Assembly (NCBI GenBank): GCA_963771465.1
Contig: CAVYTU010000017.1
Coordinates: 128,001 to 192,000, forward strand
DNA: 64,000 nt
Source: an uncultured delta proteobacterium
GTDB lineage: Bacteria; Desulfobacterota; Binatia; UBA9968
Reading direction: 5' to 3'
The position numbers were made by a program, and so were the translations under genes. Under the pieces are notes generated by a model, which saw nothing but the letters and a program-made list of their open reading frames with translations, was not told the origin of the DNA and made no database searches. Positions 23,754 to 46,153 of this stretch are shown piece by piece (the stretch's first letter is position 1; every line of letters begins with the position of its first letter).

Positions 23754-23817
23754 CATCGGCAATTACGAATAACAATCGATCTATTTTTTAGTGAATAATT
23801 CATCGGAGGTAATTTTT

Positions 23818-25911
23818 TTGTCCGATCCAAGAGTCGGTTTACTTTTCGATCCCAAATCCGTCGCCATCATCGGCGCCTCGGCGGATCTCGCCAAGGCGTC
23901 CGGTTTGCCGCTACGTAACATCGTCAACTCTAAATTTACCGGTAAGATTTATCCGGTCAATCCGCGCGCTAAAGAAATCAGCGGGCTTACTTGTTATCCC
24001 ACGGTCACCGACCTACCCGAGCCGCCTGACGTGGCGATTTTCATGATCGACGCCAGGCTCACGGCGCCGATCATGGAAGAGTGCGGCAAAAAAGGCGTCA
24101 AGACTGCCATCATCGGCTCTGCCGGCTTCAGCGAAGACGGCGCCGAAGGGCAAGCCCGTCAAGACGAGGTAAGTGAAATCGCCAAGCGCTACGATGTTCG
24201 GGTTTGCGGACCCAACTGTCACGGCACATTCAACGTCTATAAAAATATTCCCTGCGGTTACGATCATTCTTATGCTTTGCCGATCAAGCCGGGACCGGTG
24301 GCGATTGCGTCACATAGCGGCGCTTTGCTCGGTGTCATCGGCCATCGCGCCGTGCAAGCCAACCAGGGCTTCAGTTACATGGTCAGCAACGGCAATGAGA
24401 TGGATTTGGATCTGTGCGACTTCACCGAGTTCTTCCTCGCAGACGACAACACTAAAGTCGTCGCCGTGCTCATGGAAAGTCTAAAAAATGGGCCGCGATT
24501 CTTACAACTCGCCGAGCGCGCCCACGACATGGGTAAAACCATCGTCGTGCTCAAAGTCGGCAAGTCGGAGCGCGGCGCGATCACGACCATGGCGCACACC
24601 GCGCGCATGGCCGGCTCGGGAGAAGTCTACGAAGCGGCGTTTCGTCAGTACGGCGTGATTTCCACCGACACGGTGGAGGCTTTTCTCGGTACGGCGCAAT
24701 TTGCCGCGCACCAGCCGGTGCCGCGCGGCGGGCGGCTGTTCGTCATGACTTCGAGCGGCGCCGGCGCGAGTCTTATGGCCGACAAAGCGAGCGAGTACGG
24801 CATCGAGCTTGCCGATATTTCCGAGGCGGCGAAAGCGCGCGTGCCGCAGCGGCGCTCGGCCATTTTGACCAATCCCTTCGACACCGCCGGCACTTCGCGC
24901 GCTCCGGGATTTCTCGCTGCCGTGTGCGACGCCTTCGCCGAAGACAATGCCAACGATTGTATGCTCATGTTCATGGGGCCGCTCGCCGTCCGCCACGAGT
25001 ACGGCCGACAATTTGCCGCGGCTGCTGAAAAGCACCGCAAGACCGCCGCGGCGATCATCAATCTTTCCGAAACCGACATGCGCGATATCTTTCAGGAGAA
25101 ACATATTCCCGTCTACGACGCGGCAACCGATGCTTGTTTCCGGATGCTGCGCGGTTATATCGACTACGGGCAGTTTCTTGAGCGGCGCAAAACGGCGCCG
25201 CGGCGTGATTCAGATTCGCAACGCCGCGCGAGCCAGTGTAGAGGCGATTTTGCATGCGCATCGCGGCGCCAAGATGCTGCCGGCGGGTGGCAACCGTCGA
25301 GTTGTTGAACGCTTATGGATTTGAATGCGCGAGATCGATTCTCGTGAAATCGATCCTTGAAGGGAAAACCGCCGCCACCGCAAAAATTGGCTATCCGGTG
25401 ATTCTCAAAGGGATGGTGCCAAACGTTGCGCATCGCAGCGATGCCGGGTTGGTGAGCGGCAAAATTTCGGACGCCACCGAGCTTGACAAAGAATTTGCCG
25501 CAGCTAGCTGCCAAAGCAAATGCTCTCACCGCAGGATCGACGCCGATCAGCGTCGAGAAGTTTGTCGCGCATGACCTCGAAGTTATTCTCGGAGTGAAAT
25601 ACGACCCAACTTTTGGCCCGGTGATTCTCTGCGGCCTGGGCGGTATTTTTACTGAAGTTTTGCAAGATTTCGCGCTCCGGCTAGCGCCGCTGACAAAAGG
25701 CGACGCCGAGGAAATGCTCGCGGCGCTAAAAGCGTATCCGGTTTTGAAAAAATCCCGGAAGAATGTCGACTTGCTCGTCGACGCATTGCTGCGCCTATCG
25801 GAACTCGCCGTGACGTTAAACGGCAAGATTCAAGCCGTGGACATCAATCCCATCGGCCTCGGTGGCGAATCGGCTCAAGCGATCGTATTGGATGCTAAGG
25901 TGCACTTGTAG
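23818..25911 (+). pseudogene. ADP-forming acyl-CoA synthetase (acetate-CoA ligase family), three apparent frameshifts
   Basis: SVAIIGAS, YPVNP, GPNCHG, VSNGNE, AHTARMAG, NPFD; ATP-grasp part (GYPVILK, DPTFGPV, DINP) in shifted frames near 25220, 25285 and 25500. Confidence 0.85.
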
Positions 25912-28418: not shown

Positions 28419-28973
28419 TTAATTGTTACAAAGCTTGAGTGTCCTTACTGTAGTTTCCAATGCCCATACCGTCGTCGCGTGCTGCCAATCGCCCGTGATT
28501 AGCAAGGAAACAGCATGTTTCTTGTCATAAACCATCATGTAATTCATGCCCATTGGCGGCATATTTCCTGATGGCAAACGGTAATAGGCGTTTGTTTTCA
28601 GGTCGTAAGTGTAGGTGCTACTGGATAGGGCGCCGGCAGGGCGGTTGGAACCGTTGCGCGGATTATCGACAACTAAGAGAAAAACACCTCGAACTTCGTC
28701 GAATGCCATTGGGAAGGATTGGCTCTTAGGGAGGCTATCGCCTTGTGGAATTCTTTTCTCCCATGTCCCCGGTGATCCGGATGCAATTGCTGACGTGTAG
28801 AGCCAAATCTCATTTATGCTTTGATATTCTCCAAAGACGGCGATTTTTTTATTGATCGTGTCGTATTCCATATTGTGATGAATGCTGTGATGGGTTTCCC
28901 GTGTTGCTAGTTTCCATTCGTCACGATTAGGGCCGATTTCCCAAACCCCTCCGCCGTGATATCCGATGATCAC
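28419..28973 (-). pseudogene. C-terminal fragment of a beta-propeller (Kelch-like) protein
   Basis: Repeating MEYD/MAFD/MVYD strands with W spacing; AT-richer; 5' end abuts the RHS remnant. Confidence 0.45.
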
Positions 28974-29009
28974 AACTCAGAGCGACGGCAATCAAATCAT
29001 TTGCTTAAA

Positions 29010-29688
29010 CGTACGACAAGGTTGGGAATCGGAAATCCAAAGCCGACAACGCCGGAACGGCGGACTACACCTACGATGTTTTAAACCGCCTCACCCAAGC
29101 GGTTAACCCGCTGCCGACCAATCCGCTGGAGACGTTCACTACGATCTGGTCGGCAACAGAACCAACTTCAATCAGAACGGCGCGTCGATCTTCAACATAG
29201 CGAACCAATTGTTGGAAGACGCCAACTTTACTTCCCAATACGACAACAACGGTAATATGACGATGAAGACGGCGAAGGTTGGCGCAGCCGTCACGAACTT
29301 TGAGCACGACGCCGAGAACAAGCTGGTTCGCGTCGTGTCGCCAAGTAACACCGCGAACTATAAGTACGACGGTTTAGGACGAAGAGTCGAAAAGCAAGTG
29401 ATTGCGGGCACGACGACGGTCACCAAATACGTCTACGACAACGAAGACATCCTGCTCGAACTGAATGGCTCCAATCAAATCGTCGCCCGTTACACCCATG
29501 GCCCCGGCAAGAATGATCAATGGGTACAAGACATTATCAAGAAAGAAGCACCGGTATATTTGGCATCTCCAACTCAGCTGTGGGATGCTGTAAATAATAG
29601 ACCGACAGTTCTCGCACGAGAAATTCAACAACTAGAGTCCGCCGGTTATAAGCAAATCGGCGATTATCCGGTTCCGCCAGGATGGTAG
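29010..29688 (+). pseudogene. RHS/YD-repeat remnant fused to a short toxin-like C-terminal tip
   Basis: TYDKVGNR, YTYDVLNRL, YDLVGNR, YDNNGNM, YKYDGLGRR, ARYTHGPG, then an abrupt 59-aa tail; frameshift near 29138. Confidence 0.8.
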
Positions 29689-29697
29689 GCCGGCGAT

Positions 29698-30200
29698 ATG
29701 AACAAACTTGAAGAGACAATAGGATTATTGCAAGAATTGGACGCTGCAAAGGTCCCAGGGTATGGAGCAAGTAAAATACCTGATGAGATCGACGAAAAAA
29801 TTACAAGAACATTGAAGAGCTACCTCGAACTTAACGAATAGGAAAAAAAGGAACTTAGGGGAAAAGTCATACGTGAGCACAAGTTTGTATTTCTGGCGTT
29901 CGCGGAACGAATGGCATCGTTAGCGATCCGGGCGAAATCACAAGAGCCATTGAGCGTAGTCATGATGGCGATGTTCTTACAAATAGATGTCGGCGATGTG
30001 AGGGAAGACATTGTGATTCTGATTCTAACATATGCAGCAGCACACAAATTTGGGCTCGATCCACGATCTGTATTCATGGAATCTGCTCGACAATTCGGAT
30101 TGAATGATACTTCTGGTTTGGAGGCGTTTCTCAAAAGATCAGATGAAGATAAATCATTAGATTCCATGGGCTACGTCGAAGGGGCGGATCGGTCTTCCAG
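29698..30200 (+). pseudogene. Putative immunity protein with in-frame TAG
   Basis: ATG 29698, 9 bp after the toxin-tip stop; MNKLEETIG...LNE*EKKELRG...RMASLAIR; TAG at 29839, in frame with ORF 29911; 3' end approximate. Confidence 0.55.
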
Positions 30201-30207
30201 ACTTGGT

Positions 30208-30909
30208 CTACGGTTTTCTATTAAACTCGAATGCGCCTCGCGCCTCGCCACTCTCCGGAACCGTAATCTCTTGGCTCTTGATCCCGCCGTCTTCATGCCA
30301 AGCCGTTAGGACATAATTGCCGGCCGGCAGATCGGGTATTGAAAATGTCCCCTGCTCATTGGTGACGGCATAGTATGGGTGATCGAAGACGTGGATGAAT
30401 CCCAACATCCACGCGTGGGTGTCGCAGACGACTCTTAAGATTCCTGCTTGCCTTATTCTCGAAGTCGTCTCAATGGTTGTGTTTCTGAAAGGCAAGGACA
30501 AATTGAAAACCGTCCGATCTCCCAGGTAGGCGTGTGGTACGTGCAGTTTTGGGTCGTTGCTTTTGACTTTTAACTTTTCTCCCCGCTGCATAGCCATCAC
30601 CCGCGGTGCGTAGCGACAGCCATCGTTGTAGAGAAAGTTTTCTTTCAGTGGATCAGCCGCTTTTCCTGCCGGCGCGGACTCGATAAAGACGACTACATTT
30701 TTAAGGCCGCCGTTTGATTCGATCAAATACGTCTCGTTAGGCAGCGTCTCGCCGCAATAGTCCTGATCTTTGCTGACCTTTATCGGTTTGAGTTGCGCTG
30801 GAGGATCAGTGAATCTGACCTCACCGGCGATCGAGCCGGCATGAATGTTAGCAACGGAAAACATGATGAGAGATGCGGCCAGGGTCGTCGTGAGTATTTT
30901 GGTTGCCAT
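30208..30909 (-). CDS. Secreted cupredoxin/carboxypeptidase-regulatory-like domain protein
   Basis: Signal peptide; GCRYAPRV, DPKLH, CDTHAWM, HPYYAVT, LPAGNY.LTAWHE. Confidence 0.75.
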   Translation of the reverse strand: MATKILTTTLAASLIMFSVANIHAGSIAGEVRFTDPPAQLKPIKVSKDQDYCGETLPNETYLIESNGGLKNVVVFIESAPAGKAADPLKENFLYNDGCRYAPRVMAMQRGEKLKVKSNDPKLHVPHAYLGDRTVFNLSLPFRNTTIETTSRIRQAGILRVVCDTHAWMLGFIHVFDHPYYAVTNEQGTFSIPDLPAGNYVLTAWHEDGGIKSQEITVPESGEARGAFEFNRKP

Positions 30910-31104
30910 CGTGAGCTCAGATATGTACGCTTTTGCAACGACCAACGGGCGACAGTACCCCAACTGCTTCGACAGGGTCAAGAATAGTTGTAACGCCGAA
31001 TATTCGAGTCGAGATATGGTAAGGTAGAGGTGAGTCCGTGGTCAATTGACAAGGTGGCTGTATCCGACTACATCCCGACGAGTCAGCGCTGCTACACTAA
31101 TACG

Positions 31105-32103
31105 ATGCATGGAGCCGTGAGCAAGATCCTCCGAACGGTCATCGGGGTCGGTATTCTCATTTTGTCGAGTTCGGTCGATCTCGGAGCGCAAAGCCGTAAG
31201 GTGCGCGTGGCGATGCCCGGCTACACGATTGCGGGATTGTCGTTTCTGACGGCGAAGCTTAACGGCTACTACGCCGGGGAAGGTTTGGATGTCGAGCTGA
31301 TCGCGATGCGCGCGCCGACGGCGAATTTGGCGGTGCTGAGTGGTAGCGTGGAGTTTTCCACCGTGCCCTTGGTCGGACTCAACACGGCGCTGCGCGGCGG
31401 CGCGTTGAAAGTAATCATGGTTCACTTCGACAAGCCGCAGCATGTGCTGTTCGTCAAAAAAGAGCTGCAAAATTTGCAACTATTGCGTGGGAAGAAGTTG
31501 GCGGTGTCCGGCCCCGGCGTGATCGACGACCTTCTCCTGCGGGAAGTTCTGGCGGCCAACGGCGTCGACGCCAACCGCGAAGTGACGATCCTAACACTGG
31601 GCTCGGCCGATACGCGCGTGACCAGCTTGATTACCGGCACGGTGGACGGCGCGATGATCATTGCGCCATTCACGTTCACGGCGAAGGACAATGGTTTCCG
31701 AGAACTGGTGGTGTTCAAGGATCAAGGCGTTCTCTTGGCCAGCGGTGGCATTGTGGCGCGAGACGAGATGCTCAGATCCGATCCGTTGCTGGTGGAGCGT
31801 TTCGTGCGCGCGTCGATGATGGGATTCATCCATTCGCGCGACAATCGAAATGGTGCGATCAGAGTTCTCACCAAGAGTCTCAAGATCGACGAATCCATCG
31901 CCGCGAAGGTCTACGATTCATCGCGGCCGACGATGACCGCCGATGGCACGCTGTCCGACGATAGCCAAAAAAAGATGGCCGCCTTCGTGGCCAAGACTGC
32001 GGGTCTCAAAGATATCGCGCCGGTGGAAAGGGTTTTCGATTTTTCATTCGTCCGCAAATCCCACGCGGCGCTGCACGCGAAAGGTTGGCAGCCCGGATCG
32101 TAA
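31105..32103 (+). CDS. ABC substrate-binding protein (NMT1/SsuA-like)
   Basis: GYYAGEGLDVEL, LRGKKLAVS, GTVDGA. Confidence 0.85.
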   Translation: MHGAVSKILRTVIGVGILILSSSVDLGAQSRKVRVAMPGYTIAGLSFLTAKLNGYYAGEGLDVELIAMRAPTANLAVLSGSVEFSTVPLVGLNTALRGGALKVIMVHFDKPQHVLFVKKELQNLQLLRGKKLAVSGPGVIDDLLLREVLAANGVDANREVTILTLGSADTRVTSLITGTVDGAMIIAPFTFTAKDNGFRELVVFKDQGVLLASGGIVARDEMLRSDPLLVERFVRASMMGFIHSRDNRNGAIRVLTKSLKIDESIAAKVYDSSRPTMTADGTLSDDSQKKMAAFVAKTAGLKDIAPVERVFDFSFVRKSHAALHAKGWQPGS

Positions 32104-32113
32104 CAGCTGTGAA

Positions 32114-32143
32114 TTGACATTCGTAAAGGACTGGCACTAGAGT
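32114..32143 (+). promoter_or_regulatory. Putative sigma70 promoter for the grdE/grdB-like pair
   Basis: TTGACA-N18-TAGAGT, 18 bp before ATG 32162. Confidence 0.45.
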
Positions 32144-32161: not shown

Positions 32162-33436
32162 ATGCAACTGTCACTGGCGATTCATCCCGTTACATCGATT
32201 CAATTCGGCGCGCGCACGGGTTTGGTCGGAACGACGCTTTCGATCCAACAAGACGAGTTGCGTCGGCTCGTGCTTGAAGAGAGTTCATTCGCAGCCGTCG
32301 ACTTCGAGCTCGCTCGACCGGGGGATAGTCTACGGGCGGGGCCGATATTTGACATCGTCGAGCCGCGCGCTAAGGCGCCGGGCGGAAGTCCCGATTGGCC
32401 CGGCATTCTCGGCGAGCCGCATACTGCCGGCAGCGGTACGACCCATGTCCTTGAGGGCGCCGCAGTGGCCGTCGTGCGCGAAGACTCACCCGGCGAGTCG
32501 CGCGGCGCTACTGGCTACGTCTTGGAAATGAGCGGCGCACCGGCGGCGAGCTCGCACTACGCGACGCTCTGTCACTTGATCATGGTGCCCCATAGCAAAG
32601 CGGATGTGCCGGCGCATGCACGCCAAAGAGCTTATCGGCTGGCGCAATTGAAAATTGCCGTGCACCTGGCGCGCGCCGCGCTCAATGAAATTCCCGCGCG
32701 CACGCTCAGTCTTGATACGGCGATCGCTGCCGACCGCGTCGGACTGCCGCGGATCGCTTACGTTGGCCAAATATTTTCCCGCCAAAGAAAACCGGTCCAG
32801 GATGAGTCGATTCTTTACGGCGCCGATACCGACGGCATGCTGCCGACGGTGCTCCACCCCAACGAGTGGTTAGACGGCGCGCTGCTGCCGTCGTACCATT
32901 GTTCGCTGGGCGGCGCGGAAACCTATTTTTATCAAAACCATCCGGTCATCACGACACTGTATCGGCGCCATCAGGCGGGCGAATTGAACTTTGCCGGCTC
33001 CGTGGCGACCATCGCGTCGGCGGATAATTCCGACCGCGATCGCAACACGCACTTGGCGGCCAATCTAGTCAAATGGGCGCTTGGCGCCGACGCAGCGGTG
33101 CTGACTAAATTCGGCGGTGGCGTGCCGCACACGGACCTTGCAGAAACTGCACGCTTGCTGGAAATTATGGGAGTAAAAACCGCGGTGCAGGTCACCGACC
33201 TGGCGCGCGATCATAGGATCGAGTCGGCGCTGCTGTTTAATTTCCCCGAAGTGAACGCGGTGGTCTGTGTCGGCGGTAACGACACGAAGTGGAATCTGCC
33301 GCAAGTCGAGCGCGTCATCGCCGCCGACAGCGGCATGGCGGAATTGCTCGCCGGTCCGTTTGAAATCGACTCGCTCAACGTCATCGGTGTGGCCAATCAG
33401 CAGGGCGCGTCGCGGTTGCGGTCGATGGTTTACTAA
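32162..33436 (+). CDS. Glycine/sarcosine/betaine reductase component B proprotein subunit (GrdE/GrdG/GrdI-like)
   Basis: DIVEPRAK, GSGTTHVLEG, LPRIAYV, PTVLHPNEWLDGA, TYFYQNHP, VVCVGG. Confidence 0.85.
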   Translation: MQLSLAIHPVTSIQFGARTGLVGTTLSIQQDELRRLVLEESSFAAVDFELARPGDSLRAGPIFDIVEPRAKAPGGSPDWPGILGEPHTAGSGTTHVLEGAAVAVVREDSPGESRGATGYVLEMSGAPAASSHYATLCHLIMVPHSKADVPAHARQRAYRLAQLKIAVHLARAALNEIPARTLSLDTAIAADRVGLPRIAYVGQIFSRQRKPVQDESILYGADTDGMLPTVLHPNEWLDGALLPSYHCSLGGAETYFYQNHPVITTLYRRHQAGELNFAGSVATIASADNSDRDRNTHLAANLVKWALGADAAVLTKFGGGVPHTDLAETARLLEIMGVKTAVQVTDLARDHRIESALLFNFPEVNAVVCVGGNDTKWNLPQVERVIAADSGMAELLAGPFEIDSLNVIGVANQQGASRLRSMVY

Positions 33437-33511: not shown

Positions 33512-34792
33512 ATGCGCATCGTTCATTATCTCAATCAGTTTTTTGCCGGACTCGGCGGGGAAGAACATGCTGGCACGCCGCTCGAAGTACATGACGGCGC
33601 CATCGGGCCGGGGAAATTGTTTCAGCAATTGCTTGGCGGCGACGCTCAGGTTGTCACGACGCTCGTCTGCGGTGATAACTATGCGGTGGAGAATCAGAAG
33701 ACGGTGGTTGCCGACGCGTTGAATAAAATTCGTGACGCGCAGGCTGAGCTGTTTGTCGCCGGGCCATGCTTTTTGGCTGGCCGCTATGGCATGGCCGCTG
33801 GCGCGCTGTGCGCCGCGGTGCAGGCAAAGCTTGGGATTCCTGTGGTTACCGGCATGGCGCAGGAAAATCCTGGTGTCGATCTCTACCGCGAGACTCTTTA
33901 TATCATCGACTCGGGCGACAACGCGGCCAAGATGCGCGATGTGCTCGTGCGCATGGCGGCGTTGGCGTTGAAACTGGCGCGCAAGGAAGCGATCGGCCGG
34001 CCCAAAGATGAGGGTTATATCGCGCGCGGCTTGATTCGCGATCAGTTGGTTACAGCGACAGCGGGGGAACGGCTGGTCGATATGGTTTTGGCGAAAGTGA
34101 CAGGCGAGCCATTCGAATCCGAAATGATGGCGACGGCGTTTGCGCCAATCCCGATGCCGCCGGGGGTAAAAGATCTCCGCAAAGCGAGAGTGATGCTGAT
34201 TACGGACGGCGGCTTGGTGCCGAAGGGCAACCCGGACAAAATTCAGGGCTCGGCGGCGACGCGATGGGGGTCGTATAGCATCAAAGACTGCACAGATCTC
34301 GATGGCTCGGATTACGAAATTTCGCACGGCGGCTACGACGCGCAGTTCGTTCGGCAAGATCCCGACCGGCTGGTGCCGTTGGACGTGATGCGCGACCTGG
34401 AGAAAGAAGGCGCCATCGGCGAGTTGCACGATGAATTTCTCTCGACTTCCGGTTTGGCCAATCCGCTCTCCAATACCCGGCGCATGGGGCGCGAGATGGC
34501 CGAGAAAGCCAAACGGCTGGGCATCGACGCGATCATACTTACGTCTACGTGAGGCACGAGTACTCGCAGCGGCGCTGCGATTACAACCGAACTGGAAAAA
34601 GCCGGCATCCCCACCGTGCAAATCACCGCAGCGTTGCCGGTCGCGAAAATGGTCGGCGCCAACCGAATCGTACTCGGTAACGGTATCGTCCACGTCGTCG
34701 GCGACGCCAAAATGCCGGCGGAGAAGGAAAAACAGGTGCGCCGCCGGCTTATCGAGCAGGCGTTGGCTACACTGCGCGGCGATGGCAATTAA
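33512..34792 (+). CDS. Glycine/betaine/sarcosine reductase family selenoprotein B (GrdB-like), Sec at TGA 34550-34552
   Basis: MRIVHYLNQFFAG, CGDNY, GPCFLAGRYG, GGLVPKGNPD, HGGYD, DPDRLVPLD, LTST-TGA-GTSTRSGA...ELEKAGIP...VGANRIV; the frame stays open 79 codons past TGA to TAA 34792 (426 aa). Confidence 0.92.
34560..34584 (+). promoter_or_regulatory. Bacterial SECIS-like stem-loop
   Basis: GTA-C-TCGCAGC-GGC-GCTGCGA-T-TAC; the 17-nt upper hairpin starts 11 nt after UGA and has G residues in the loop. Confidence 0.8.
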
Positions 34793-35131
34793 GCAGCCAC
34801 GTGCCGCCTACCGCAGGCATGCAAATCTAGCGCAGAAAGTTGTCGGGTCTCGCTTACGTAAGAGCGGCTTCCTTGTTAGGATATCGTCATGAAAAAACCG
34901 CCATTTGCGCTGCAGCTAAAGTAGCGGCGTGATCATCGTAAAAAGCTGAATTGACTCATTGAGTCTCACGACCATGAAACGGCGCCTGATCGGTCCAACC
35001 GTCATCCCATCGATGCTCACCGGATTGGTGGCGGATTCTTTGTACTTCGATGATTCGCCGCAGAGCGATGTGAATGTTCTGGCGAAAAGCGTATTAGTTT
35101 TTGGCGCGGTTTTTACCCTGCCCTCGACCCA

Positions 35132-38655: not shown

Positions 38656-39603
38656 CTAGTTTCCTACCGGCGCGAACAGTTCGCTCAGCGCCGGCCGATT
38701 GGGGATGTAACCTTGCTCGTTGGCGTACTGGACGAACTTCTCCAGCACGACGCGATTTTCCGGCGTGAGGCCGTGACCCCAAGGATTTGCTCCGAATAGT
38801 TCTTCCTCTTCCTCCAAGATCAACACTGCCGAAGGAAATGCCGAGCGCTTGGCGTAGTCGTAGGATTTGCGGCAAAGCGATTCGGCTTGAGTGAATGCTT
38901 CAAGCAGGCTCGAGACGAGCCAGGGATTCTTCTCGAATAACGATTGCCTGACGACCAGCGTATGAGTGATCGGAAAAATTCGGGTCGTGCGGAAATAGTC
39001 GTTGACTGTGCGCCGCGCATCTTGGAAGAGACGGCGAATGCGCGGATCTTTATTGCGAAACGACGGCACGATGTTGGGTGGGATCAACGCGTCGATTTCA
39101 CCGCGCAGCAACAGCGCTTCGGTCGGCTCGTCGACTACGCTAATCTTTATTCCAGCCGGCGGCTGATAGCCGGCCCGTTCGGGTGCCGAAGTAAACCACT
39201 CGCAGTCCTGCGGCCGCACGCCGTAGTATTCTTGCAAGATTCCTCTCGCCCACAGGCCGACGGTCAGTCGATATTCGTCCATGCCGATTTTTTTGCCCTT
39301 CAAGTCTGCCGCACGTTCGATTGCCGATGATGTCGAGCAGAAGATGTAGGGATGAATTTGCATTCTCAGTGGAAAGATCGGCAGCGCGACCACGGGCTCG
39401 TTGCGTGAGCGCGCCATCATGTACCAGGAGAGCGACATCTCGGCGATGTCGAATTCTTCGTACACCGGCCGCATACAGGCTTCGCCGCTCTCAGCCCGGC
39501 GCGGTTGCAGATTGATTCCTTTTGCCGGCACTTCGCCGGCAAGCAAAGGCCGGGTGCGGTGATAGTCGGCGAGCATGATCGTCAGGTCGAGGGATTGAGA
39601 CAT
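38656..39603 (-). CDS. 4,5-dihydroxyphthalate decarboxylase-like protein
   Basis: DYHRTRPL, FDIAEMSLS, LPIFPLR, WARGIL, IFPITH, NPWGHG. Confidence 0.8.
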   Translation of the reverse strand: MSQSLDLTIMLADYHRTRPLLAGEVPAKGINLQPRRAESGEACMRPVYEEFDIAEMSLSWYMMARSRNEPVVALPIFPLRMQIHPYIFCSTSSAIERAADLKGKKIGMDEYRLTVGLWARGILQEYYGVRPQDCEWFTSAPERAGYQPPAGIKISVVDEPTEALLLRGEIDALIPPNIVPSFRNKDPRIRRLFQDARRTVNDYFRTTRIFPITHTLVVRQSLFEKNPWLVSSLLEAFTQAESLCRKSYDYAKRSAFPSAVLILEEEEELFGANPWGHGLTPENRVVLEKFVQYANEQGYIPNRPALSELFAPVGN

Positions 39604-39622
39604 ACGGGCTCCTTCTAATGAT

Positions 39623-40603
39623 TCAACGGCTCTGGCCTGTGGCTTTGGCAAGGAATTGCCGGGTAAAAAATTTGTCCGGGCCGCCGAATTTTTTTGCTTC
39701 CGCCTCGATCCGCGTCGCGGTGATGAGCGAGTCGATATCATCCCGGGTGATTGAGATCGAGTAAAGCGTGGCGAATTGGTTGATCACCTGGCGCACTGTA
39801 GCCGGATCGCCGAATTTGTTTTTCTTGATGACGGCGGCGGCGACTTTCTCCTGATTGCCGCCGAGAAAATCCAGTCCGCGCTTGAGCGCCCGCAGCATGG
39901 CGACGATGCCCTCTGGATCGGTTTCGATCTTTTGTTTGCTGGTAACGATGACGACGAAGGGAAATCCCGGCATGACACTGCCGATATCGAAGAGCGATGA
40001 AAAACCTTTTCGTTCGAGCTCCAGTCGTTCCAAAAAGGAAAATGGCGAGGCCTGAATCTTGCCGGTCTCCAAAGCCTGGGCGCGGGCCGGACTGTTACCG
40101 ACGCCATAGAGAATTTTATAGTCGCGGTCGCGCACCAAGCCCTTCTTGGCCAAGCCTTCCACGGCGGCGAATTCGGCGACCCCGCCGGGACCGGTGACGC
40201 CGACGACTTTGCCTTTCAAATCATTGATGCCGGTGATTCCCTTGGCGCCGATCAACGTGTAGTCCATGTAAGGCTGCATGCCGCTGATGATTTGCATCGG
40301 CGCGTTTTGCACGATGGCCCGCACCGCGGCGACTCCAGCCACAAGTGTGTACTCCACGCCGCCGCCGACCAGCGCGGCCATCGCCGTGGGACCGCCGCGA
40401 ATCAAAACGGTTTTAACGTCCAACCCTTCGGCGGCGAAGAAGCCAAAATCCTGAGCCACAACCAGCGGCAATGTGCCGCTCAACGTAGGAGTGTTGGAGG
40501 CGAAGTTGACGGTTTTAGCGGCGGCGAAGGCGGCGCCGGCAAAACCGACGATGCTCAATGCCAGCAGTATAGCGAGACCCATTCGCCTTTGGGTAAAATT
40601 CAT
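39623..40603 (-). CDS. ABC substrate-binding protein (NMT1/SsuA-like)
   Basis: Signal peptide ending AFAAA; GFFAAEGLDV; DLKGKVVGV. Confidence 0.85.
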   Translation of the reverse strand: MNFTQRRMGLAILLALSIVGFAGAAFAAAKTVNFASNTPTLSGTLPLVVAQDFGFFAAEGLDVKTVLIRGGPTAMAALVGGGVEYTLVAGVAAVRAIVQNAPMQIISGMQPYMDYTLIGAKGITGINDLKGKVVGVTGPGGVAEFAAVEGLAKKGLVRDRDYKILYGVGNSPARAQALETGKIQASPFSFLERLELERKGFSSLFDIGSVMPGFPFVVIVTSKQKIETDPEGIVAMLRALKRGLDFLGGNQEKVAAAVIKKNKFGDPATVRQVINQFATLYSISITRDDIDSLITATRIEAEAKKFGGPDKFFTRQFLAKATGQSR

Positions 40604-40625
40604 GGTTCCGACGCTCACTGCCTTG

Positions 40626-41639
40626 CTAAAGTTCACGCGTGCTCTCGGCGAACAGATCTTCGATCTTCGGCTTTTTTGTGATGAGTCCTTGCTCGTGGGA
40701 AAAGTCGATGAGAGTTTGCAGCAATTTCCGGTTGGCTTTGACGCCGTATGGGAACGGATCGCTGCCAAAGAGTTCTTGAGTCTTGAGTAAATATTCTTTG
40801 CCAAAAAAGAGTCCCGACGGAATGCTTTCCGCCAACCTGGCGTTGAACTGTTCCTTGGCTTTGACAAAGGCGCTGTACAGGTTGAAAGCGACCCAAGGAT
40901 ACTTTCGATGGATGTCGCCGCGAATCGTGTAGGTGTGGTTTACCGGCAGAAATCCCCACTTATCGAAGAACCGTTTGCCTTCGGCGATGCGGTCGGTAAA
41001 GAGTTCTTTCACTTTGCTCCAGTCGTGCTCGGAGCCGGTAATGCGATGGGAGCGGCCGAGCTGGTTGGGCGCGTTTTTCCATGGACTGTTGATCGCCGCC
41101 ACGTCCAGTTCGTGCTTGACCAGCATCGACGCCAAGCTTTGGTCCGGCGGCACGCGCTGGAATGATATTCCTTTGGGCGGAGTAAAACCGGTGACGCCGC
41201 CGTGGCTCATATCCTCAGTGCGCTCCATGTACCAGTCGACCTTGTATTGCGACACGCCGAAGTCGTGTTCAAGAATGCCGCGCTGCCAGAGCGCCGCAGT
41301 TTGTTGATATTCACTGACGCCGATGCGTTTGCCGACGATGTCCTCAGGTTTACGAATTCCAGAGTCGGTGTGGTAGGAAAGCTCGGTGTGAAATAGCCGG
41401 CGGCTGGGAAAAACCGGCAACGCGATCATGTCGAGGCCGCGCTCACGGGCGATCAGATACGACGACATCGACATCTCGCCCACCGGGAATTCCATATCTC
41501 TAAGCTGGCGCAGGAAGGTCTCCGATGGATGCGAGTAAGTCGGCACAATCTCGATCGCTTCAGCCTGAACGATGCCTTTCATCAGCGGCTCGACTCGTTC
41601 GTTGAATGCGGAAATAAAGTTTAAACGTAACTTCGCCAT
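40626..41639 (-). CDS. 4,5-dihydroxyphthalate decarboxylase-like protein
   Basis: EMSMSSY, LPVFPSR, EYQQTAALWQRGIL, FLPVNH, DPFPYG..ANR. Confidence 0.8.
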   Translation of the reverse strand: MAKLRLNFISAFNERVEPLMKGIVQAEAIEIVPTYSHPSETFLRQLRDMEFPVGEMSMSSYLIARERGLDMIALPVFPSRRLFHTELSYHTDSGIRKPEDIVGKRIGVSEYQQTAALWQRGILEHDFGVSQYKVDWYMERTEDMSHGGVTGFTPPKGISFQRVPPDQSLASMLVKHELDVAAINSPWKNAPNQLGRSHRITGSEHDWSKVKELFTDRIAEGKRFFDKWGFLPVNHTYTIRGDIHRKYPWVAFNLYSAFVKAKEQFNARLAESIPSGLFFGKEYLLKTQELFGSDPFPYGVKANRKLLQTLIDFSHEQGLITKKPKIEDLFAESTREL

Positions 41640-41673
41640 TATATCTCCTGCTGGTTACTTCGTCGGGCTCTAC

Positions 41674-42696
41674 TCAACGAAGCTTGAATATTTCGTTATA
41701 GAGTCTAACTAGTCCCTCGAAGTCTTTGTAATCTTCGGGATTCTCCACGACCCGTTTGTAGCCGCGAAAAAGCCGCGGCGGATGAGGCTCGACGTCTTTG
41801 CGCACGGGAATGCGCTGCATGCCGCGCATCATCTCCTGTCCCTCTTTGGACAGGCTGAAGTCATAGTAGAGCCGGGCGGCATTGGGATTGGGCGCTTTGG
41901 CCGCGATCATAATCGGGAAGGCGCTCACCACCGCCGGTTCCAGCGGCACCCAGTCGATGGGCGCGCCCCTGGCCACCATGCGTTCCAAGGTTTGATTGTA
42001 CGCTACGATTAGCGGATATTCTCCTGCCCCCGCCAGTGCGACTCGTTCCGAGTTGCCGCGCATCATGGCGGGATCGATGGCCGCGATGCGGCGAAAGTAG
42101 CTGATCGCTCTCTCTCGCCCCCATGCGCGCATCAGCCCTTGCAGCATACCGTACGCCTCGTTGTCGAAGGACAGTTGGCCGCCTTTCCATTTTGGCTCGA
42201 CGAGCGCCTCGTAGGTCCTCGGCACATCTTCGCGTTTGACCAGCTTGGTATGCCATCCCAAGACGTATGTGACGACATAATAAGCTGTCCAGTAGCCTTC
42301 CTTGTCGACCAGATCTTCGTCGATTGCCTTGGCTTCCGGAGAGCGATAGGAAGCCAATAGTTTTCGCTCCATCAGCGGCGCATACATCTCGGCTCGTCCG
42401 GCAACGACATCCCAGGCGTGACGGCCAGCGCGCGCCTCGTTGAGAATCTTATTGAGCAGCGGACCGCCGCCGGTGCGAAACAGGGTGGGCTTGATGAACG
42501 GATATTTTTTCTGAAAGCGATCCACGACCTCCTTGCTCTGATCGAGAGTCATGGTGGTGTAGAAAATCACTTCGCCTTCTTTTTTTGCTCCTTCGATCAA
42601 GCGCGGATCGGGGTTCGCTTGCGAGCTGGCGAACTCGACGGCAAAAATCAATGGCAGAATGAAAGCGACGATGGCGGTGTGGCTTCCTACTTTCAT
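41674..42696 (-). CDS. Extracellular solute-binding protein (Fe3+/thiamine-type family)
   Basis: AKKEGEV, FQKKYP, PKWKG, APNPNAA...SKEGQ. Confidence 0.85.
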   Translation of the reverse strand: MKVGSHTAIVAFILPLIFAVEFASSQANPDPRLIEGAKKEGEVIFYTTMTLDQSKEVVDRFQKKYPFIKPTLFRTGGGPLLNKILNEARAGRHAWDVVAGRAEMYAPLMERKLLASYRSPEAKAIDEDLVDKEGYWTAYYVVTYVLGWHTKLVKREDVPRTYEALVEPKWKGGQLSFDNEAYGMLQGLMRAWGRERAISYFRRIAAIDPAMMRGNSERVALAGAGEYPLIVAYNQTLERMVARGAPIDWVPLEPAVVSAFPIMIAAKAPNPNAARLYYDFSLSKEGQEMMRGMQRIPVRKDVEPHPPRLFRGYKRVVENPEDYKDFEGLVRLYNEIFKLR

Positions 42697-42732
42697 GACT
42701 TCCCTCCCAGCTGAGGCGACGTTGTCGATCGA

Positions 42733-43743
42733 TTATGTGTCAAGCGTGCTCTCGGCGAAAAGTTCTTCGACTTTCATTTCGCGCGGCGTCAAACCTTGCT
42801 CGTGGGAATAGCTGGTGATGGTGTCGAGCATGGCGCGATTGGCTTTAATGCCGAACGGAAACGGGTCGTCGCCGATCAGCGCGCGCGTAGTCGCAAGATA
42901 TTCCTGTCCAAATATCAGTGCTGTCGGAATCTGCTCCGTCAATTTTTCCTGGGCAAAGGCCTTGGCGCGGACGAAGCCTTCATAGAGTTTCGCGGCGAGC
43001 CAAGGATGTTTGCGGTGAATATCGCCGCGGATGATGTAGGCGTGATTGACCGGTAGAAAGCCATGCTGCTGGTAGAAGCGCGCGCCTTCGGCCATGCGGT
43101 CGGGAAACAGCGGCTCGATCTTGCTCCAATCGCCTTTGCCGGTGATACGGCTGGAGCGGTCGAGCGTGTTGGCTTGCAGCACCCACGGGCTTGAGACGTG
43201 GGCGACATCGAGTTCGTTATCGAGGATCGTCGAGGCAAGGCTTTTATTACCGGCGATACGGTTAAAAGATATTCCCGGCGGCGGCCTGAAACCCGTCGCA
43301 CCGCCGTGGCTCATCTCTTCGCTCCGTTCCATGTACCAGTGAATCTTATATTGCGACACGCCGAAGTCATGTTCGAGAATGCCGCGCAGCCACAACGCCG
43401 CGGTCTGCTGATATTCCGCCACACCGAGACGTTTTCCCGCGAGGTCTTGCGGCTTCGTGATGCCTGAGTCGACGTGGTAGGACAGTTCGGTTTGAAACAA
43501 GCGGCGGCTCGGAAACGCCGGCAGGGCGATCATGTCGGCTCCCTGCGAGCGGGCGATCAGGAACGACGACATCGACATTTCCGCCACTTCGAATTCGCCG
43601 AACTTCAACTGGCGCCAAAATGTTTCCGCCGGGTGCGAATAGGTCGGAACGAGACTAACGCCGTCGAGCTTGATCGTGCCGTTCATCAGCGGCTCGACCC
43701 GCTCGTTAAAGGCGGAAATGAATCCTAGGGTCAACTGTTCCAT
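42733..43743 (-). CDS. 4,5-dihydroxyphthalate decarboxylase-like protein
   Basis: EFEVAEMSMSS, FPSR, EYQQTAALWLRGIL, DPFPFG; close paralog of 40626-41639. Confidence 0.8.
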   Translation of the reverse strand: MEQLTLGFISAFNERVEPLMNGTIKLDGVSLVPTYSHPAETFWRQLKFGEFEVAEMSMSSFLIARSQGADMIALPAFPSRRLFQTELSYHVDSGITKPQDLAGKRLGVAEYQQTAALWLRGILEHDFGVSQYKIHWYMERSEEMSHGGATGFRPPPGISFNRIAGNKSLASTILDNELDVAHVSSPWVLQANTLDRSSRITGKGDWSKIEPLFPDRMAEGARFYQQHGFLPVNHAYIIRGDIHRKHPWLAAKLYEGFVRAKAFAQEKLTEQIPTALIFGQEYLATTRALIGDDPFPFGIKANRAMLDTITSYSHEQGLTPREMKVEELFAESTLDT

Positions 43744-43754
43744 TGCGGTCTCGA

Positions 43755-44441
43755 TTATTTATCGAAGCCGTCGATGGACCAGATGTCGTAGAGCAGTTCC
43801 ATGCGGCGAAACGTCGCTTTGTAGGTTTGCTCCTGGAGCGCGGGTGAGTGGAGGTAGCGAACAGCGATCTCCTCGGCGAGACTGCTATGCTCTTCATCCG
43901 CTTCGGTATGGACAGTGAAGAAGCGCACGTCGTCCGGCTTCATATTGTAGTTTTTGAGCAAACCGTTGCCGATCGCTGCCGCCGCCGGACCGAAAGTTCC
44001 CTCCGCGCCGATCTGGATCGACATGACCACGAACCAGGGCAAAGTGTGGATGATGAGCTCGACGTAATAAAGATGAGCTGCGGTTGACGGACGCAGTTCG
44101 GCGGACTCCAATTGTTGCTGGGTTAGACCGATGGCGTTAGCGAAGCGAATCGCCAGTTCGTTATGACCGGCGCTACCGGTATCCATGCCGCGAGTCTCTT
44201 CTTCGACCACGCCCCAGAGCTTTTGAGCGATCTCCGGATCGTTGCAGGCGAGATAGCGCAGCATGGCGATGCGCGGCACCGCGGCGCGAAACTGATAGTC
44301 TTGAAGCGCCCAGGCGCGAATCTGCTCCATGGTCGCCGTACCGTTGCAGACGGCTTTCAAGAAAGGATGTTTAATGCGGATTTTGGGAAACGCTTGGATA
44401 TCTTTCTTGAGCTGTGCGACGAATTCTGCGGATGTGGCCAT
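43755..44441 (-). CDS. Heme-oxygenase-like diiron protein (TenA/PqqC/CADD family)
   Basis: KHPFL, EEE...GHNEL, GAEG, FFTVHTEADEEH. Confidence 0.8.
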   Translation of the reverse strand: MATSAEFVAQLKKDIQAFPKIRIKHPFLKAVCNGTATMEQIRAWALQDYQFRAAVPRIAMLRYLACNDPEIAQKLWGVVEEETRGMDTGSAGHNELAIRFANAIGLTQQQLESAELRPSTAAHLYYVELIIHTLPWFVVMSIQIGAEGTFGPAAAAIGNGLLKNYNMKPDDVRFFTVHTEADEEHSSLAEEIAVRYLHSPALQEQTYKATFRRMELLYDIWSIDGFDK

Positions 44442-44510
44442 GGTGAAACTCCTCTTAGTTTTTGCACCAATTTCTGGAGTGCATAGCTTATCAATCCAGG
44501 ACTCCGGTGA

Positions 44511-45239
44511 TTACTCCAGTTGGTTTTTGCTTCCTTGCAGCCGGCTGACGAAATACTCCCAACCGCGCATGGGGAAACGTTGGTCGGCATTGTACACTTC
44601 CAACTCTTCCGCGGTCAGATAGCGCGGCTCGCCGTGTAGCAGCGCGAGATGATTCCACTCGCCGAGCATGGCGAGCCGGGTCGTGCGTTCGATGACTTGC
44701 TCGATGCTTTCGCCGACGACGGCGTCGCCGTGGGAGCGCAGTAAGACCACCGGGCCGGCGCCGAGCGCGGCGGCGAGCTCGTTGCCGCGCTCCACCGTGC
44801 GCACCAAGCCGATGCCTTGATAGATGGGCGGGCCGTCGGCGGAAAGAAATTTACCGTAGTGATGCATCGGCTTGAGCTTGATCGGCAAGACGCTGAAGAT
44901 CGTGCTCCACTTGGAATGGGTGTGCGCGACACTGACGATTTCTGGACGAGCTTTGAAGATGCACGCATGAATCGGCCACTCGTTGGGCGGCGTCTTGGCG
45001 CCGTCGAGATAGTTGCCGTCGAAGTCCTGCATGATCAGGCGATCGCGAGTCACACAGCCGGGACTAACGTTGGCGATGGTAATAAACGCATCCGCGCCGG
45101 GCACGCGCACGCCGATATGACCGTAGCCGTCGGTGACGCCCTCGTGATCGAGAATGTGACAGGCGGTCATCAACTTATCGGTGAGCTCTCTAAGATCGGA
45201 TGAGTCAATGGTAGGAATATCTTTGCGATCGGCGGGCAT
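44511..45239 (-). CDS. Class II aldolase/adducin family protein
   Basis: GYGHIGVR, EWPIH, VAHTHS, LLRSHG. Confidence 0.9.
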   Translation of the reverse strand: MPADRKDIPTIDSSDLRELTDKLMTACHILDHEGVTDGYGHIGVRVPGADAFITIANVSPGCVTRDRLIMQDFDGNYLDGAKTPPNEWPIHACIFKARPEIVSVAHTHSKWSTIFSVLPIKLKPMHHYGKFLSADGPPIYQGIGLVRTVERGNELAAALGAGPVVLLRSHGDAVVGESIEQVIERTTRLAMLGEWNHLALLHGEPRYLTAEELEVYNADQRFPMRGWEYFVSRLQGSKNQLE

Positions 45240-45311
45240 GGCTGCTCCTTCAAACTGAACGCGTGATGAATTAATTTATTGTCGCGACTCTAGTGGCCGG
45301 TTATCGCTCTG

Positions 45312-46034
45312 TCAAGCAACGCGCCGCTCGCCCAGCCGGCTCAAAAAATATTCCCATGGGCGTGCCGGAAAAGAGCGGTCGCCGGCGAAAGTCGCCAGTT
45401 CCTCTTCGGTCAAGTAGTCCGGCCCACCGTGGACCGCCGCTAAGTGCGACAGCTCGCCGAGAAACGCGAGCTGCACCGTGCGCAGGATAGCTTGCTCGAC
45501 ATTGGCGCCAACCACTGCGTCGCCGTGAGCGCGCAGCAAAGCGGCTGCGCCGTCTTTCAATGTGTCGGTTAGCGCCTGGCCTCGCTCAACGGAAGTGATC
45601 AGCCCGGCTTTGGGATAGATAGGCGCGCCGCCGACAGGAAGAAATCTGCCGTACATATGCACCGGACGCAGGCCTTTTTTCAGCACGCTAAATAGCGCGC
45701 TCCATTTGGAATGGGTGTGGCATACGCTCATGACGTCCGGGCGCGCGCGCATGATGCACGCGTGAATCGGCCACTCGTAGGGCGGCGGCTTGGCTCCGCC
45801 GAGAAAGTTGCCGTCGAAGTCCAGCAAAACGAGCTTGTCGAGTGCAGCGCAGCCGGGGCTCACCTGGGCGATGGTGAGAAGCGCGGCCTGTTCCGGTACG
45901 CGCGCACTCACATGGCCGAAGCCGTCGGTGATACCCTCGCGGTCGAGGATCAAACAGGCGTTGACGACTTTCGCTTTAAGCTCATTGAGTTCGCTAGAAT
46001 CGAACGCAGGTCCTGTGTATCGCGCGCTGGCCAT
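45312..46034 (-). CDS. Class II aldolase/adducin family protein
   Basis: GFGHVSAR, EWPIH, VCHTHS, LLRAHG; tandem paralog. Confidence 0.9.
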   Translation of the reverse strand: MASARYTGPAFDSSELNELKAKVVNACLILDREGITDGFGHVSARVPEQAALLTIAQVSPGCAALDKLVLLDFDGNFLGGAKPPPYEWPIHACIMRARPDVMSVCHTHSKWSALFSVLKKGLRPVHMYGRFLPVGGAPIYPKAGLITSVERGQALTDTLKDGAAALLRAHGDAVVGANVEQAILRTVQLAFLGELSHLAAVHGGPDYLTEEELATFAGDRSFPARPWEYFLSRLGERRVA

Positions 46035-46153
46035 TAATGCTCCTCTGATATCGTAAGATCGCAGATCGGTTCTAATTGTGCGTGAACGGGGTGTCAAGTC
46101 GCGCGGATTTTACTAGAGTTAAGGCGACTGTCGTAATAGAATTCGCAGCGAAC

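Follow-up and report, generated by a model that had tools for sequence, protein, structure and literature searches.

Serines replace both motif cysteines in a GrdB-family selenoprotein branch of Binatia and SAR202 bacteria

Introduction

Reductases of the GrdB family follow a common scheme, set out in PMC10298544, PMC3091704 and PMC13188914, in which protein B binds the substrate and takes the carboxymethyl group on its selenocysteine (Sec, U), GrdA is the thioredoxin-reduced carrier and protein C forms an acetyl thioester. The canonical Sec site is UxxCxxC, as the first-pass annotation of the DNA considered here had noted, and this form is indeed carried by three annotated sarcosine/betaine reference proteins (two P. 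acidaminophilum GrdF-type proteins and E. gilvus GrdH). A grdB lacking CxxC is called a likely pseudogene in one report (PMC6778437). Serine at position +3 after Sec is a catalogued motif in PMC13188914 and PMC1088965; the former, a 2026 review, gives GrdB as UxxC only and several other families as UxxS. The UxxS selenoproteins compared here (arsenate reductase TIGR00014, rhodanese form 1 and Prx-like cd02970) have other folds and belong to unrelated families.

Several described systems depart from the canonical pattern. PrdB of D-proline reductase (TIGR04483) has a homologous Sec domain and, in annotated PrdB-type genes, reads UxxCxxS/T, with Ser or Thr at the second position, but it is a single-domain protein that keeps the first Cys and works with PrdA and PrdC rather than GrdA and GrdC. 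Betaine reductase GrdH/GrdI has a non-cleaved partner (PMC10838667), and the partner in E. gilvus also lacks the cleavage motif; GrdH itself nevertheless carries UxxCxxC, is found with grdC–grdD and a BCCT transporter, and falls on another branch. FarEB of Cloacibacillus porcorum (PMC10838667; NF053623) is reported to be without the CxxC of GrdB and without the two proprotein cysteines of GrdE, is thought to feed GrdA and protein C, and is set beside the present locus by description. FarB has been linked to fluoroacetate reduction in an anaerobe by expression and comparative evidence, with no purified enzyme (PMC10838667).

The locus analysed here resembles the GrdB, GrdF and GrdH reductases in its full-length family match, its STU site, its upstream GrdE-family partner and a genome with one GrdA (CxxU) and one GrdC; P. 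acidaminophilum GrdF is ∼45% identical to its GrdB. It differs from them in a UxxSxxS site, a Cys86/Ala96 swap, the lack of GrdD, a short-tailed GrdC, a host with haem-copper oxidases and a grdA–grdC pair on another contig. It also differs from FarEB in that no radical-SAM or MFS gene was found among its neighbours. The first-pass annotation, centred on the two serines, had passed over the larger departures, namely the missing grdD, the non-cleavable GrdE and the Cys86/Ala96 swap.

The gene and its surroundings

The window (the whole 64,000-nucleotide stretch of DNA analysed) carries a grdB-family selenoprotein B gene at 33512–34792, an open frame of 426 aa with a single in-frame TGA; this and all features of the locus lie on the plus strand. 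The motif peptide T-S-T-U-G-T-S-T-R-S-G-A-A-I is encoded at 34541–34584, and the U-G-T-S-T-R-S read by the first-pass annotation is present in an intact frame, with TGA at 34550–34552 as the predicted Sec codon (U347), AGT at 34559–34561 (Ser350, in place of the first Cys of UxxCxxC) and AGC at 34568–34570 (Ser353, in place of the second). UGA occupies the Sec position in 67 of 67 distinct sequences of the branch defined below, and the host genome (G000) encodes the Sec machinery (tRNA-Sec, selA, selB and selD). This genome of 6.9 Mb is 99.4% complete and 6.3% contaminated, and among named relatives the closest are chiefly Candidatus Binatia and ‘delta proteobacterium’ soil MAGs.

The general profiles of the family are matched, with a hit to PF07355 over the whole length (E 3e-131; 438 bits against a cut-off of 22) and to TIGR01918 (464 bits; cut-off 65). 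Substrate-specific cut-offs are not reached for TIGR01917 (glycine GrdB, 430 of 602 bits), NF040794 (sarcosine GrdF, 475 of 800) or NF040795 (betaine GrdH, 427 of 775), and the two-domain protein scores 92 bits against TIGR04483 (PrdB), where 300 are required. The GrdB and GrdF sequence motifs of PMC9751293 are found in 0 of 62 branch proteins, with two hits among GrdF controls and four among GrdB controls. By these profile and motif tests, the window protein is a PF07355 member but not a glycine, sarcosine or betaine reductase nor, judged by the FarE score of its partner given below, a fluoroacetate reductase. The gene very probably encodes a working, substrate-specific protein B.

A grdE-family partner (32162–33436, 424 aa, PF09338) lies 75 bp upstream of grdB and scores 141 bits against the FarE profile (cut-off 675). 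Consensus matching alone gives a sigma-70-like promoter match (10/12) at 32114–32143, 18 bp before grdE, and a weak terminator-like match at 34850–34867, after grdB. Just upstream of grdE stands a gene for an NMT1-type solute-binding protein (31030–32103), found in the same place in five related loci (L009, L010, L026, L039 and L041). Elsewhere in the window, an acyl-CoA synthetase (NDP-forming) gene at 23791–25911 occupies two frames with an apparent frameshift near 25300–25480, an RHS-repeat fragment with small ORFs at 28419–30309 is probably a degraded insert of toxin–immunity type, and the minus strand at 38656–46097 bears consecutive genes for NMT1-like binding proteins, together with a TenA/haem-oxygenase-like gene and two class II aldolases.

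Serine codons and the SECIS-like hairpin

The bases of the motif were compared with independent public contigs (assembled contigs, not raw reads), and none shows a Cys codon among the changes listed. Near-identical contigs from three runs (X5, X7 and X15) span the motif; no A>T change is listed for them anywhere in the stretch, and the only listed change inside motif codons is T34561C, which is synonymous (AGT to AGC). Run X2 has four A>T places, of which 34537 is the one among the changes listed. An RNA run (X16) also gives a contig spanning the motif, with one synonymous difference. In five metatranscriptome runs, parts of both genes of the pair are matched by near-identical RNA contigs, which, without a silent-stretch control, is not taken as evidence of expression.

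A SECIS-like hairpin follows the Sec codon at 34564–34580, with a conserved core at 34565–34579 and a GGN loop. Support for it comes from covariation, since the folding energy of the hairpin alone is not significant (z from −0.3 to −1.85). The core is paired in all 67 distinct branch sequences. The first base of the second Ser codon (in the window, the A of Ser353 facing T34576) forms an A–U pair in 67/67 UxxSxxS, 9/9 UxxCxxS and 4/4 UxxGxxS genes, and genes with Cys at the second position have a U–A or U–G pair there in 28/28 cases. The hairpin has thus been retained through a compensatory change, which supports Sec decoding and shows that the serines are not forced by the RNA. The idea that the SECIS element imposes them was accordingly rejected: the stem is kept equally well with Cys (U–A), Ser (A–U) or Gly (G–C) at the second position. 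The constant use of AGY for the second Ser is, however, accounted for by stem pairing. In the 67 distinct sequences AGY encodes both serines, while the Gly and Thr codons vary freely; among long ORFs of the host genome, a crude count puts the AGY share of Ser codons at ∼40%. The proposal that both Ser codons overlap the SECIS stem thus holds for AGC, which lies within the conserved stem, but hardly for AGT, which is marginal, with its A unpaired in the window fold and a lower stem that is not conserved in relatives.

Distribution and phylogeny of UxxSxxS

Most database proteins stop at the UGA, and the 79-aa part after Sec (34553–34789) is missing from them, which hides the motif: all 120 matches listed cover only ∼81% of the query, and the post-Sec part is matched by one database protein among 107 candidates. 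A GTDB search with query peptides, which samples close kin, gave 55 loci, of which 52 reach the motif and contain 53 sites: 50 UxxSxxS and 3 UxxCxxC, the latter from two clostridial MAGs. Across the order, other Desulfobacterota and references (114 sites, not de-duplicated by genome), eight motif patterns occur: UxxSxxS 70, UxxCxxC 15, UxxCxxS 11, UxxSxxC 7, UxxGxxS 4, UxxGxxC 4, UxxAxxC 2 and UxxCxxG 1. In a class sample of 150 genomes, grdB is present in 15 of 20 genomes of the same order and in 0 of 130 others, and all 15 have the UxxSxxS form; five genomes of the order hold a UxxCxxC paralogue beside it. Within Bacillota, 30 loci scoring best against FarE yielded seven readable sites, all UxxSxxC (the other 23 did not reach the motif), and none of 401 Bacillota genomes has a FarE over the cut-off.

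For tree building, the motif columns and positions 86 and 96 were left out. In the first (59 of 82 rows, 22 near-duplicates and one PrdB-like row being left out), UxxSxxS forms a single branch (24/24 rows, support 100/99). The second (56 rows) recovers it at 17/17 with support 100/100, within a 97/96 group completed by 15 UxxSxxC rows; a loss of the first Cys followed by that of the second fits this unrooted nesting. Its members include Binatia and SAR202/Dehalococcoidia. The mapping that the first-pass annotation had called for thus gives a real and distinct subfamily, and UxxSxxS appears in none of the characterised glycine, sarcosine or betaine reductases compared, the nearest precedent, by description, being FarB. 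Loss of the cysteine pair is less exceptional than had been supposed, given the eight patterns, UxxCxxS/T in PrdB, the reported absence of both cysteines in FarB and UxxSxxC in Bacillota. Among the papers listed for the open PMC and bioRxiv literature, none has ‘UxxSxxS’ or ‘UGTSTRS’; none joins Binatia or SAR202 to these reductases, and none describes a GrdD-less system in its listing or the opening of its abstract.

The host genome itself has five grdB/E pairs with four motif patterns, none canonical. A second UxxSxxS grdB (contig C15, 776900–778173; L152) has two frameshifts in its 5′ part, from assembly error or decay, and adjoins a grdE and a divergent DUF255 thioredoxin-like gene. Further pairs on contigs C11, C7 and C13 (L153, L073 and L154) read UxxSxxC, UxxCxxS and UxxGxxS, the last being likewise cysteine-free; the GrdE on C11 scores best against FarE, at 228 bits (cut-off 675).

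GrdA, GrdC and the missing GrdD

A single grdC–grdA pair was found in the host genome, on contig C12 (about 166004–167894; L001), where grdC is directly followed by grdA and no grdD or thioredoxin genes are present. In the order, grdC and grdA occur in 14 of 15 grdB-bearing genomes versus 0 of 5 grdB-negative ones; the exception (G268) is 95% complete and in 80 contigs. In the single-contig genome G236 the UxxSxxS protein is the sole GrdB, and its gene is clustered with grdE, grdA and grdC. GrdA carries CxxU in the host and in all 26 readable loci of 30 (the pattern did not read the other four, among them that of G236). Up to six protein-B paralogues in a genome would feed one GrdA/GrdC.

GrdD was sought with controls of which four genomes pass the cut-off and a fifth has the gene split over contigs. 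The best match in the nearly complete host genome reaches 21 bits (cut-off 350), and E. gilvus GrdD gives no tblastn hit there. No grdD over the cut-off was found in any of 20 genomes of the order, including the single-contig G220, G236, G252 and G324, nor in three Chloroflexota carriers, and it is absent in seven of ten other grdB-bearing Desulfobacterota. The shape of GrdC follows this distribution: the tail after the anchor measures 21–33 aa in 22/22 readable GrdD-less genomes versus 52–59 aa in 6/6 with GrdD, and host GrdC is without the roughly 30-aa tail. Three GrdD-less loci were unread by the tail pattern, among them L107 with a long, different tail. The tail may dock on GrdD. Residues C253, E366 and H422 of GrdC are invariant (28/28) with or without GrdD, and the GrdC model (pLDDT 89.8, pTM 0.92) shows low-identity matches to SpoVAD, FabH, OleA and thiolase chains.

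Acetate kinase is present in 5/5 genomes with GrdD and absent from 15 of 26 GrdD-less ones (including single-contig G220, G236 and G252). The host has an acetate kinase, two genes from another grdB/E pair, and no match to PTA_PTB (phosphotransacetylase). That region (contig C7, 3951–11229) comprises grdB–grdE (UxxCxxS), one more gene, the acetate kinase and a probable phosphoketolase, an arrangement that may be due to chance. A DUF255/Thioredox_DsbH gene with CxxC stands next to second sub-branch genes or grdC in L024, L037, L044–L048, L055, L104, L106, L108 and L109, and its product is a candidate electron donor for GrdA.

The GrdE partner and substrate clues

A GrdE-family gene adjoins grdB in 47 of 53 related loci, some of which are cut by contig ends. 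The two-Cys proprotein cleavage motif of GrdE is found in 0/56 branch partners versus 12/21 partners beside UxxCxxC genes, and in the window the segment aligning to the cleavage site (32873–32944) is without it; the motif is reported to be missing in GrdI and FarE also (PMC10838667). Close to the former cleavage site, 46/56 partners retain a Ser; it is replaced in the second sub-branch and SAR202. The pyruvoyl group at GrdE residue 242 is described in PMC9908766 as confirmed in C. difficile and its role in substrate binding as debated; a carbonyl on GrdB is discussed there but not identified, and the Ser of the STU motif has been proposed as a carbonyl source (PMC10838667). As the part played by the GrdE pyruvoyl in substrate binding is debated, an amine substrate may still be bound in the absence of its site.

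Neighbours offer no substrate-specific gene: amidohydrolase, CmcJ-like oxidoreductase and HAMP genes are mostly divergent and seem to reflect gene order common to the kin, and a search of the ESM Atlas returned only the GrdE family. Three GrdB-domain proteins of 774–789 aa (P0159, P0197 and P0232), in which the domain starts near residue 430–445, are probably GrdE–GrdB fusions.

A proposed route and the fate of the acetyl group

The reading that we tentatively prefer, with somewhat less than even confidence, is that the window holds an intact Sec gene of a conserved GrdB branch whose product, with GrdE, is a substrate-specific protein B for the single GrdA/GrdC of the genome, a substituted acetate being cleaved without a Schiff base and acetyl-CoA being formed instead of acetyl phosphate. 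Following the family mechanism, the U347 selenolate would displace the leaving group from X–CH2–COO⁻, of betaine/onium or halide type; by analogy with betaine and fluoroacetate, the substrate would have a ready leaving group. GrdA, with its intact CxxU, would then receive the carboxymethyl group on its Sec, and the two-electron step and the selenenylsulfide form would be located on GrdA, so that GrdB would need no resolving cysteine. In the GrdB model, Ser350 and Ser353 lie at the start of the helix after U347, where they could act as hydrogen-bond donors. GrdC, with its predicted FabH/thiolase fold, would take the acetyl group on the invariant Cys253 and, without GrdD, pass it to CoA, an acceptor suggested by the modelled fold. 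Thioredoxin and thioredoxin reductase, or the DUF255 thioredoxin-like protein, would re-reduce GrdA.

GrdD is reported to carry the Cys that forms acetyl phosphate; the glycine reductase papers cited here assign that step to protein C as a whole. Several observations weigh against acetyl-CoA formation from a substrate with a ready leaving group: the neighbours hold no substrate clue, the invariant residues of GrdC do not change with the presence of GrdD (so that hydrolysis to acetate or direct phosphorolysis could occur), the debated role of the GrdE pyruvoyl (PMC9908766), together with the Ser near the site in most partners, would allow an amine substrate, and the kin are not independent, the branch counting as one evolutionary event. 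In addition, the host and ten other GrdD-less genomes have acetate kinase.

The most serious competitor retains the same protein B but has GrdC release acetate or acetyl phosphate alone, or takes the substrate to be an N-substituted glycine held by a different carbonyl cofactor, such as one derived from Ser. Besides the 11 of 26 GrdD-less genomes with acetate kinase, the preserved GrdE Ser, the preserved STU motif with its proposed carbonyl-forming Ser (PMC10838667) and the GrdB carbonyl discussed in PMC9908766 speak for it. It is nonetheless rather unlikely, given the three single-contig genomes that have the system without acetate kinase, the replacement of the GrdE Ser in the second sub-branch and SAR202, and the absence of the published GrdB and GrdF motifs from all 62 branch proteins.

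A broader form of the acetyl-CoA proposal is more doubtful than the proposal itself. Binatia and SAR202 with oxygen-respiration genes would have remodelled the clostridial glycine reductase into an assimilatory, CoA-yielding selenium relay in which up to six protein-B paralogues remove leaving groups from substituted acetates (betaines, sulfonium acetates and haloacetates) and supply one GrdA and a tail-less GrdC, the UxxSxxS protein being the core member and perhaps carrying Cys86 in the mirror loop of a duplicated domain.

The Cys86/Cys96 swap

The branch is also marked by Cys86 in a GPCF loop (33767–33769; Ala in others) and by Ala96 (33797–33799), where nearly all other family members have Cys. 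Cys86 is present in 62/62 branch proteins and 0/48 others, with Cys96 in reverse, and a second, metagenomic sample (74 of 80 loci readable) gives Cys86 in 32/32 versus 0/42. Among 150 representatives at 50% identity, 24 have Cys86, of which 21 are without Cys96 and 3 have both; Cys96 occurs in 119 of the 125 without Cys86. One of the probable fusions (P0159) has both cysteines.

Either a relocated thiol or a packing swap could account for Cys86. As a relocated thiol, it would resolve or protect Sec from the matching loop of the N-terminal domain, in place of cysteines at 350 and 353. The association in both samples agrees with this, as does the GrdB model (pLDDT 91, pTM 0.58), in which the elements of two alpha/beta domains follow one another in the same order; hhalign of the two halves sets C86 on U347. 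That repeat is weak, however (E 0.029, probability 1.7%, 7 of 150 block shuffles as good), and a pTM of 0.58 leaves the domain arrangement uncertain. No solved relatives were found by sequence, and a fold search with residues 1–173 returned only generic flavodoxin/CheY/LacI-like matches (best Z 10.8, rmsd 3.2 over 123 residues), with the Sec domain barely covered. One Cys gained and another lost ten residues on fits a plain packing swap, the cysteine-free UxxGxxS branch is without Cys86, 3 of 150 representatives carry both residues, and the association is again one evolutionary event, all of which makes a relocated thiol improbable.

Oxygen, direction of the reaction and gene decay

The first-pass annotation had tied the serines to a different Sec chemistry or protection in an organism with O2-dependent enzymes. 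Such enzymes are there: the host has two full-length haem-copper oxidase subunit I genes, and COX1-family genes occur in 18 of 20 genomes of the order and in two of three Chloroflexota carriers. A third COX1-family gene of the host, on contig C12 (47757–48717), is in five pieces. That oxygen respiration by the host led to loss or replacement of the cysteines is still most unlikely. If cysteines protect Sec from oxidation (PMC6778437, PMC10838667), an aerobe should retain them; Cys loss is also found in Bacillota and FarB, and five genomes of the order, three of them with COX1, retain a UxxCxxC paralogue. Of the original proposal, the distinct subfamily thus stands, and the link of its serines to oxygen does not follow from the data.

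Marginally less credible again is a system that runs in reverse or biosynthetically, with acetyl-CoA used to carboxymethylate an acceptor. FabH transfers acetyl groups from acetyl-CoA, so a FabH-like GrdC could load acetyl from it, and the system has no ATP-yielding end step; up to six protein-B paralogues on one GrdA/GrdC nevertheless fit the scavenging of several substrates better, and we know of no characterised family member that acts physiologically in this direction.

Sequencing error or a decaying pseudogene, the latter assumed for CxxC-less grdB in PMC6778437, can draw on the frameshifted second copy on contig C15 but is effectively refuted for the intact window gene, with the motif in 50/53 related sites and fixed over 70 sites with synonymous variation, the C-terminal part retained, the SECIS pairing compensated and independent assemblies in agreement.

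Implications

The UxxCxxC cysteines, which have served in print as a test of a real grdB (PMC6778437), are dispensable in a large and conserved lineage. The variant is invisible in databases, where the proteins stop at UGA and many bear the name of a glycine or betaine reductase, and metabolic reconstructions in which these soil and marine bacteria ferment glycine and make acetyl phosphate are probably in error. The branch also supplies natural variants with which to separate the roles of the UxxCxxC cysteines, the GrdE pyruvoyl and GrdC in glycine reductase. Should acetyl-CoA prove to be the product, an enzyme regarded as serving anaerobic energy metabolism would serve carbon uptake in abundant uncultured bacteria, and the CoA-yielding relay, if true, would be a widespread and overlooked route of osmolyte or organohalide carbon into central metabolism.
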